In this document: one piece after another, positions 32,343 to 32,713 of the stretch
Layout of the letters: each line of letters opens with the position of its first letter
How positions within the stretch are numbered: the stretch's first letter is position 1
UHGV virus genome: UHGV-0285842
Reading direction: 5' to 3' (one strand)
Length of the DNA stretch: 34,986 nt
Source: a virus
The notes under the pieces: generated by a model
Database searches by the model: none
Told to the model about the DNA's origin: nothing
Seen by the model: the letters and a program-made list of their open reading frames with translations, nothing else
Made by a program: the position numbers and the translations under genes

Positions 32343-32371
32343 TTGACAACTGTCAAGGATTATTTTATACT
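32343..32371 (+). promoter_or_regulatory. rightward sigma70-like promoter TTGACA-N17-TATACT with palindrome TTGACAACTGTCAA over the -35
   Basis: TTGACA 32343-32348, 17-nt spacer, TATACT 32366-32371; 6-2-6 palindrome at 32343-32356; GTCAAGTGC at 32333-32341 is also found at 30924-30932. Confidence 0.65.
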
Positions 32372-32377
32372 TTTTCT

Positions 32378-32534
32378 CATTGGTAGGGGTTGAAATTTTC
32401 GAAATAATCCCCATATTGATGATAAACAAGATTTTTTCGTGTATAAATACATGCATGAAATGATTGTTCACTTCTGAAAATCCCCTGATTCACTGTTAAC
32501 ACACACAGCACTGGTTAAACATACAGTGCTTTTT
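32378..32534 (+). ncRNA. candidate ~155-nt small RNA or terminated leader from the 32343 promoter
   Basis: No credible ORF between the predicted start (~32378) and an intrinsic terminator: stem AGCACTG (32507-32513) / CAGTGCT (32524-32530) followed by TTTT. Only an 8-codon ORF lies inside. Confidence 0.4.
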
Positions 32535-32713
32535 CGATTGAATAATGTACGAATTGATTAATTATTAATCTTCTCTTTAGCAATTCGTGCTCCCACTGAT
32601 CAAATATACAGTGGTTTTGCAGGGTTTTCTGAAATGACTTTTATAAATAGAAGTATCGAGGGCGAAAAGCTCTTTTTATTGTCCTTATTAATCCACATTT
32701 GAGGAATCTACTT

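Follow-up and report, generated by a model that had tools for sequence, protein, structure and literature searches.

The window analysed here, the whole 34,986-nucleotide (nt) stretch of the virus genome UHGV-0285842, is a ~35-kb Escherichia coli prophage, and the element under study is positions 32343–32713 of it, where a promoter is followed by a long untranslated leader. In O55:H7 DEC5A the prophage splits hicB; a literature search on a prophage inserted in hicB returned nothing relevant. A large serine recombinase is encoded at the left end, followed on the − strand by genes for lysis, tail, head, portal and a lambda-type large terminase. A 1.23-kb stretch without genes (31481–32713) then precedes three small + strand genes, so that the leader stands before what look like the replication-control genes of an uncharacterised E. 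coli and Salmonella prophage family. The following elements were distinguished in and around the leader:

32343–32371, + strand: σ70 promoter TTGACA-17-TATACT, predicted start near 32378; hexamers kept in E. coli, Salmonella and Proteus
32330–32358, + strand: operator-like motifs around the −35, namely TAGGTCAA (32330–32337), palindrome TTGACAACTGTCAA (32343–32356) and TGTCAAGG (32351–32358)
32378–32421, + strand: 5′ hairpin P1
32435–32460, + strand: hairpin P2, with UAUAAAUAC in its apical part
32476–32629, + strand: core domain, a closed multi-helix structure of ~155 nt with two long-range closing helices
32507–32534, + strand: hairpin T1 with U5, which forms one arm of the core, may act as a leaky terminator and is shared by E. 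coli and Salmonella
32547–32590, + strand: P5 arm, with GUACGAA/UUCGUGC (32547–32553 with 32584–32590) and GAUUA-N5-UAAUC (32556–32570), then the invariant CUCUUUAGCAA
32593–32618, + strand: local hairpin ‘T2’, CCACUG-N10-CAGUGG and U4, a kinetic alternative to a long-range helix
32640–32650, + strand: A/U box UUUAUAAAUAG, just upstream of T3
32658–32680, + strand: intrinsic terminator T3, GAGGGC-GAAAA-GCUCUU then UUUAUU
32701–32893, + strand: ribosome-binding site GAGGAA and a gene for a 59-amino-acid (aa) protein, with its ATG at 32714

Related loci were abundant in bacterial genomes. A chromosomal counterpart of the surrounding 1.6-kb region was found in 58 complete E. coli genomes (87–99% identity), and the 421 nt around the leader occurred once each in 31 complete E. 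coli genomes, always at the same place and with 85–98% identity; for the leader itself the range was 85–99%. The lysogen FDAARGOS_946 was 98.9% identical across the 1.6 kb and 97.9% across the leader. The leader was also present in 16 IMG/VR loci and 9 metagenome loci; three metagenome or IMG/VR pattern matches were rejected as chance matches. The 1.6-kb region had no match in phage or plasmid collections, and near and distant DNA searches of the same collections gave no leader homologue, the sole match being to an RB49-type motif at 31557–31640. Collapsing the sequences left 27 distinct E. coli-type leaders, and loci of Salmonella, Proteus, Providencia and Edwardsiella were reached through homologues of the 59-aa protein. 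The same gene arrangement was found in these four genera, with a long gene-free stretch before the 59-aa gene in every one, and the leaders were composed as follows:

E. coli type: promoter, P1, P2, an invariant block, the ~155-nt core, A/U box and T3
Most Salmonella: TTGACA-17-TATAAT, a short 5′ hairpin, the same core, A/U box and T3
Salmonella L045 and L047: promoter as in E. coli, ~50 nt, A/U box and T3, without the core
Proteus and Providencia: other hairpins, then A/U box and T3
Edwardsiella: an ATAAATA box placed further upstream; a terminator-like hairpin unlike T3 precedes the ribosome-binding site

The comparison therefore identifies promoter, A/U box and T3 as the invariant module and the core as an accessory to it. 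Allele similarity collapses directly after T3, which places mosaic break points there. Chance as an explanation of the element is ruled out by this conservation.

The initial annotation had described a strong promoter and a 340-nt leader with no credible open reading frame (ORF) before 32714, and the latter statement was confirmed: only ORFs of at most 45 aa overlap 32372–32713, and RefSeq carries no annotated gene in the leader in 14 genomes inspected. We rejected the small leader ORFs (a 27-aa TTG ORF, MIVHF and MYELINY), as their start (TTG or CTG) is not conserved, 1- and 2-base indels break the frames in relatives and conservation is at the nucleotide level. The promoter had been called the best in the window. 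Its −35 element (TTGACA, 32343–32348), 17-nt spacer and −10 element (TATACT, 32366–32371) indeed match the consensus at 11 of 12 positions, but a − strand site at 30965 ties with it, and two sites with at least 11 matches were found in 35 kb against ~1.2 expected in first-order Markov sequences, so the match by itself is not significant. The promoter is credible because its hexamers are conserved. Of the 27 distinct E. coli-type sequences, nearly all have both (the exceptions being one TTGGTA at the −35 and two TATGCT or TATCCT at the −10), and Salmonella and Proteus retain TTGACA-17-TATAAT and TTGACA-17-TAAAAT, respectively, despite diverged flanks.

The palindrome TTGACAACTGTCAA, which contains the −35 element, occurs once in the window; in E. 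coli and Salmonella its arms are kept and its central bases vary. The 8-mers TGTCAAGG, TAGGTCAA and TTGACAAC are found in the window only at 32330–32358 and around the divergent promoter at 30965(−). Because the −35 element lies in operator-like repeats shared with that promoter, the leader promoter is probably regulated through them, and it would probably be off in the lysogen and on upon induction or infection. The divergent site, TTGACA-17-TATGAT (30965 to 30937, − strand), lies 1.4 kb to the left, and a 159-aa gene (31001–31480, −) sits between the two promoters in what, by analogy only, is the repressor-gene position of lambdoid immunity regions. A second promoter-like element was seen ~85 bp upstream of the leader promoter. 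In E. coli it is the extended −10-like TGCTATAAT (32254–32262 in the window); at the equivalent place, on the same strand and once per locus, all 10 of 10 Salmonella loci and Providencia have a σ54-type −24/−12 motif:

L036 2650–2664 and L039–L048 (for example, L039 2659–2673), leader strand: σ54-type motif TGGCNCG-N4-TTGC

Downstream of the promoter, two hairpins with U-tracts (32593–32618 and 32658–32680) had gone unnoticed in the initial annotation, and the second of these, T3, proved to be the most widely shared. T3 lies ~35 nt before the start codon ATG, is listed by a terminator scan and has the stem, short loop, U-tract and conserved position of an intrinsic terminator. Its stem (AGAGC/GCUCU), followed by U5–7, is kept with variable loops in E. 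coli, Salmonella, Proteus and Providencia, and T3 and the A/U box are present even in leaders that have none of the other leader elements. An A-U to G-U change in the stem is compatible with the + strand only, and the − strand hairpin does not fold. From the comparison of leader types, T3 is the obligatory and most widely conserved signal of the leader, and we regard it as a weak intrinsic terminator. T3 and the ribosome-binding site lie too close together to hold a promoter, so transcripts must traverse the leader before reaching the first gene. The ATAAATA core of the adjoining A/U box is invariant in 14 of 14 aligned leader types from five genera; the full TATAAATA is present in 12 of the 14, and Salmonella L045 and L047 have CATAAATA. 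The sequence TATAAATA, which is identical to the T4 late-promoter core, occurs five times in the window, at 1322(+), 31501(−), 32442(+), 32642(+) and 33008(−). Four of these sites fall inside the 1.5 kb around the leader, and two of the four precede a hairpin with a U-tract; among the four, no good −35 was seen at the sites examined (31501, 32442 and 32642).

Between P2 and the A/U box lies the folded core. Its two closing helices join GAAAAUCCC (32476–32484) to GGGUUUUC (32622–32629) and CACUG (32491–32495) to CAGUG (32609–32613), and consensus folds, computed for the 27 E. coli sequences and for E. coli cores with 8 Salmonella sequences (33 distinct cores), contain the closing helix, T1 and the P5 arm, with T3 outside the domain. 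The whole leader folds with z = −4.05 on the + strand; for the core alone z was −4.8 on the + strand compared with −1.9 on the − strand, and the Salmonella core gave −4.9 with the same architecture. Double changes were found at pairs 32491/32613 (C-G 24, U-G 3, U-A 1, A-U 1, C-A 4), 32507/32530 and 32483/32623 (C-G 11, U-G 11, U-A 4). For one-sided changes G-U is the usual outcome, with five such cases in P5 and nine in T3, the exceptions being a few non-pairing cells and a U-G to C-G change at 84/125; this pattern fits RNA of the + strand only. The tested structure comprised 29 pairs in 33 sequences; 98.7% of the 956 cells were paired, and the observed number of further pair types was reached by 1 of 500 shuffles. 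The core thus has the general characters of a conserved structured RNA, with modest support from sequences that are close relatives. It combines invariant unpaired stretches (for example, CUCUUUAGCAA and UUCGGUUGAAUAAU) with variable loops. Rfam 15 (4,227 models) gave no match at gathering thresholds in the whole window and only chance-level matches (E > 0.7) in 31400–33100, and ARAGORN found nothing tRNA-like or tmRNA-like.

The individual arms differ in how they are kept. The lower stem of P5 is 100% paired in the 33 sequences, every change being to G-U or C-G, and its upper stem is nearly invariant (top pair in 31 of 33) below a variable loop. A perfect 8-bp helix, ACGAAUUG/CAAUUCGU, that can be drawn in the window was discarded: its top is broken in Salmonella, and the conserved structure is the lower 7 bp with a 5-bp apical hairpin. 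We likewise rejected ‘T2’ as a second terminator. This local hairpin is 92% paired and has no compensatory changes, whereas the long-range alternative to which its 3′ arm belongs is 97.6% paired with compensations; the middle pair of ‘T2’ is broken in 9 of 33 sequences, all from Salmonella. Also set aside was pairing of the T1 U-tract region with the ‘T2’ loop: most alleles form this helix, but the window and four Salmonella sequences do not. Upstream of the core, P1 appears in single-sequence and consensus folds and is confined to the E. coli-type leaders, being absent from the Salmonella type. Where only one side of a P1 pair changes, the result is nearly always G-U; double changes are absent, and three pairs have 1–2 non-pairing sequences each. 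The stem sequence of P2 varies among alleles, with the hairpin preserved in 10 of 11 allele types through changes such as G-U to U-A and U-A to C-G and through extra A residues matched by extra U residues. An exact 13-nt direct repeat, TGAAATGATTGTT, links the leader (32456–32468) to codons 9–13 of the 59-aa gene (32740–32752); it is present in the 59-aa allele of the window and close variants and not in divergent alleles.

The genes and repeats around the leader have the following layout:

32964 to 32935, − strand: antisense terminator with a 12-bp stem, between the 59-aa and 331-aa genes (32925–33010)
33010–34005, + strand: gene for a 331-aa protein, the N-domain of which co-varies with the iterons
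32020–32150: iterons, about nine GTGTAGGTTT repeats, upstream of the leader

The 59-aa protein, alleles of which are mosaic, is predicted to form three helices (mean predicted local distance difference test (pLDDT) score of 74). No fold match was significant; the best ones include helix-turn-helix DNA-binding domains such as those of NtrC1/NtrC4 (Fis-type), and the model is in keeping with a helix-turn-helix-like protein. When the genome collection was scanned with a pattern of this protein, the sole match was the C-terminal stretch of an unrelated regulator gene, which may be a σ54-activator helix-turn-helix. A strong − strand terminator follows the 59-aa gene; five genera have it, with compensatory changes, and it likely marks an antisense RNA. 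On the + strand its arm supplies AAGGAGG (32955–32961) for the mini-ORF ATG AAC AAT TAA (32968–32979), and a mini-ORF of 2–3 codons is present in nearly all alleles. In the 331-aa protein, variable N- and C-terminal domains enclose a leucine-zipper-like coiled coil followed by an acidic stretch. Except for the coiled coil it had no match in Pfam, PHROG, NCBIfam or the PDB, and it matched no known Rep family; every homologue in the databases exceeds 94% identity.

In other alleles the GTGTAGGTTT iterons are replaced by CAGGGGCAAAA-type, CGGGGA-type or GGAATCTTGGGGATTT-type repeats, and the repeat type matches the type of the 331-aa N-domain in 14 of 14 loci compared; in Providencia, the same repeats accompany a 60%-identical protein. 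Because the N-domain type tracks the repeat type, the 331-aa protein is very probably a repeat-binding protein, and the iterons together with this protein form a candidate origin with its putative initiator. A palindrome, ATCAAAAATTTTGAT, and a second CAAAAATTTTGATAG copy, at 32152–32166 and 32300–32316, are almost invariant and flank a conserved AT-rich stretch between the iterons and the promoter; these may be origin-region binding sites. Searches with Pfam, PHROG and NCBIfam found no recognisable replication, repressor or small-terminase gene in the prophage. Just to the right of the window, E. coli loci have a 184-aa gene (15444–15998 in L001), and a 196-aa − strand gene at the corresponding position in Edwardsiella gave weak or faint Nu1-type matches. 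The portal protein is at most 37% identical to that of any isolated phage.

Guided by the order of these signals and genes, we assign 32343–32713 to the rightward early operon of a temperate phage, for which it would provide the promoter and a structured, untranslated leader of ~335 nt that acts as an attenuator, and hold this reading with about even confidence. Upon derepression, the near-consensus σ70 promoter would fire; most transcripts are predicted to end at T3 (~300 nt) and perhaps at T1 (~155 nt), and a minority would read through to yield the small helix-turn-helix protein and the iteron-specific initiator-like protein, translation of the latter being further guarded by the antisense RNA and the mini-ORF. 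The leader would thereby allow a promoter beside the origin-like region, with its iterons and AT-rich stretch, to fire often while the dose of replication-control proteins stays low. More speculatively, a promoter that reads away from this region and terminates early could supply negative supercoiling without protein overproduction. Probably the core answers to a conserved factor, from the host or the phage, by adjusting read-through or the stability of the RNA. Loci L046 and L047 encode the same 59-aa and 309-aa proteins, one with the core and the other without, so that core presence is independent of the neighbouring protein alleles, which suggests a conserved partner.

Several findings weigh against attenuation by the leader as we read it. 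The core is missing from Proteus, Providencia, Edwardsiella and two Salmonella loci, and the operon must therefore work without it. The covariation is thin: double changes are confined to two or three pairs, most pairs are invariant, the sequences are closely related, and the control of the pair count (control (a)) is not a probability. That the 331-aa protein is an initiator is inferred only from its co-variation with the repeats. Because neither an antiterminator alternative to T3 nor a countertranscript was found in the leader, nothing favours regulated over constitutive attenuation.

The same RNA could be read differently, in that the promoter-to-T3 unit (~300 nt) or the ~155-nt core might be primarily a functional non-coding RNA that binds a protein or ligand or acts in trans, with read-through into the genes being secondary. 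This is unlikely, in our view, though it would account for the closed core domain, the invariant unpaired stretches, a fold that beats shuffles in two genera and the uncoupling of the core from the protein alleles of L046 and L047; moreover, an end formed by A/U box, hairpin and U-tail resembles the 3′ end of Hfq-type small RNAs (sRNAs). Against it stand the missing Rfam family, the dispensability of the core in related phages and the lack of a convincing target in the phage. The invariant CUCUUUAGCAA had only a chance-level match inside a coding region of the phage, and pairing of the leader with the cop-rep intergenic mRNA, considered for an 11/12 similarity to the antisense strand, was no better than in shuffles. 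If the promoter is repressed in the lysogen, such an RNA would also be made only in lytic growth.

The initial annotation had taken T1 (32534) as the place where a ~155-nt sRNA ends or where transcription into the operon is controlled. The hairpin itself was confirmed, ~156 nt past the predicted start: AGCACUG (32507–32513) and CAGUGCU (32524–32530) form a perfect 7-bp stem with four G-C pairs around a 10-nt loop, followed by a T run (32530–32534). At −10.1 kcal/mol (z = −3.4) it was equalled by 1 of 200 shuffles, and both E. coli and Salmonella retain it. Its one compensatory change is an A-U to G-C replacement of the basal pair in 3 of the 27 distinct E. coli-type leaders (one distinct core among the 33). 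On the sRNA reading, T1 would be an efficient terminator that yields a discrete sRNA, a view that we find quite improbable. The stem and U-tract are those of an intrinsic terminator, but the 10-nt loop exceeds the usual ~3–8 nt and is the reason that a consensus terminator scan does not list T1. The sequence 3′ of T1 is as well conserved as that on the 5′ side, and the two pair across T1 with compensatory changes; a functional RNA must therefore reach past T1, which belongs to a domain formable only after polymerase has passed it, and so it is the read-through RNA that would be functional. Across the 33 sequences T1 has five broken cells; some natural variants weaken its stem and interrupt the U-tract (UUAUU), and several related prophages are without it, including Salmonella loci in which ~50 nt separate the promoter from T3, the more widely shared terminator. 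T1 is also duplicated, a feature that had gone unnoticed: 32594–32618 is 84% identical, and a half copy lies at 32491. The wider proposal of the initial annotation, a strong promoter with a long untranslated, terminator-bearing leader before an early operon, is thus strengthened by ~40 related loci, and its assignment of T1 as the end or the switch is unsupported as stated. T1 may still stop part of the transcripts.

The repeated hairpin arms raise a further explanation, that the inverted repeats act as DNA, either as sites for a dimeric protein (CACTG-N10-CAGTG) or as single-strand initiation hairpins of an origin-like region. The repeats lie ~350 bp from the iterons and the AT-rich region, and the two full copies and one half copy of the 20-bp palindrome are the only matches to its pattern in the window with one mismatch allowed. 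We nevertheless regard a role as DNA as very improbable: one-sided changes in the helices mostly give G-U on the + strand and would leave A-C mismatches if DNA or − strand RNA were the functional form, a T run follows each hairpin on the + strand only, fold stability is strand-asymmetric, and no Salmonella sequence has the middle of the second palindrome intact. There is hardly any likelihood that the leader holds a processive antitermination RNA of the HK022 put kind, with which polymerase would ignore T1, T3 and later terminators: P1 and P2 do form two stem-loops right after the start of an early operon and before its terminators, but Salmonella leaders that have neither keep the core and T3, and minimal leaders carry T3 alone.

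Attenuation by a terminator-bearing leader has several known counterparts. In the lambda PR′–6S RNA–tR′ unit, which is subject to Q antitermination, a strong promoter gives a short untranslated transcript that meets an intrinsic terminator before the operon, as here. The operon here, in contrast, is of the early replication type rather than one of late genes, the leader has several hairpins and a folded core, and we identified no Q-like gene or Q-binding element. The RNA immunity leaders of P4 (CI RNA), P1/P7 (c4) and N15 (cA) share an untranslated early- or antirepressor-operon leader, premature termination and short repeated elements. The repeats here differ in being 5–6-nt hairpin arms rather than extended complementary blocks of the seqA/B/C type; nothing tRNA-like (ARAGORN) and no Rfam match was found, and the promoter looks operator-controlled rather than constitutive. 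The plasmid copy-control modules copB-copA-tap-repA of R1 and copG-RNAII-repB of pMV158 have the order that is suggested here as well: a small DNA-binding gene, an antisense unit over a mini-ORF or ribosome-binding site and an iteron-specific protein, with iterons nearby. They lack a 300-nt structured terminator-bearing leader upstream of the cop gene, and the element here resides in an integrating phage with a serine recombinase.

The rep mRNA leaders of pT181 and pIP501/pAMbeta1, with attenuation driven by antisense RNA, are likewise long rep-operon leaders in which an intrinsic terminator limits initiator synthesis, but they require a leader-encoded countertranscript and mutually exclusive folds. 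We found no − strand promoter-and-terminator unit inside the leader: its only − strand promoter-like site (9/12, 32447 to 32419) has no terminator after it, and the hairpins have no − strand U-tract. A further parallel is offered by the PeSL (promoter/stem-loop) cassettes of T4-like phages of the RB49 type (PMC2839356): there, too, variable gene cassettes are bordered by conserved promoter and terminator motifs, at which mosaic break points fall. A PeSL, however, is a unit of ~100 bp directly before a gene, whereas the leader here is three times longer and has a long-range fold. In the gene-free stretch to the left of the leader, 31557–31643 is 77–82% identical to an unannotated intergenic motif of RB49/phi1-type T4-like phages, often present twice per genome, and this motif resembles the PeSL cassettes (PMC2839356). 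The leader thus resembles lambda PR′, the P4/P1/N15 leaders and the rep-leader attenuators in function but fails their testable defining features, and it is best filed as a variant form of terminator-bearing leader with an undescribed structured domain.

The phage family is common, one variant of the 331-aa protein being recorded on 248 contigs. Nearly all of its non-structural genes are annotated as hypothetical, and the leader is unannotated and not in Rfam. We put forward, as a tentative and on balance doubtful proposal, that the ~155-nt core (32476–32629) represents a new class of structured cis-regulatory RNA, which would govern read-through into the initiator operon by sensing a small molecule or a factor of host or phage origin, in a widespread, unstudied Enterobacterales phage family that combines a serine integrase with a plasmid-style cop/antisense/rep replicon. 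If the attenuator reading is right, the replication genes would be under three stacked RNA-level devices, a folded terminator-rich leader, an antisense RNA and a mini-ORF, placed behind an operator-controlled promoter and beside allele-specific iterons, which would amount to plasmid logic in an integrating phage. A conserved ~155-nt RNA domain with testable helices offers an experimental entry to the timing of prophage replication after induction.

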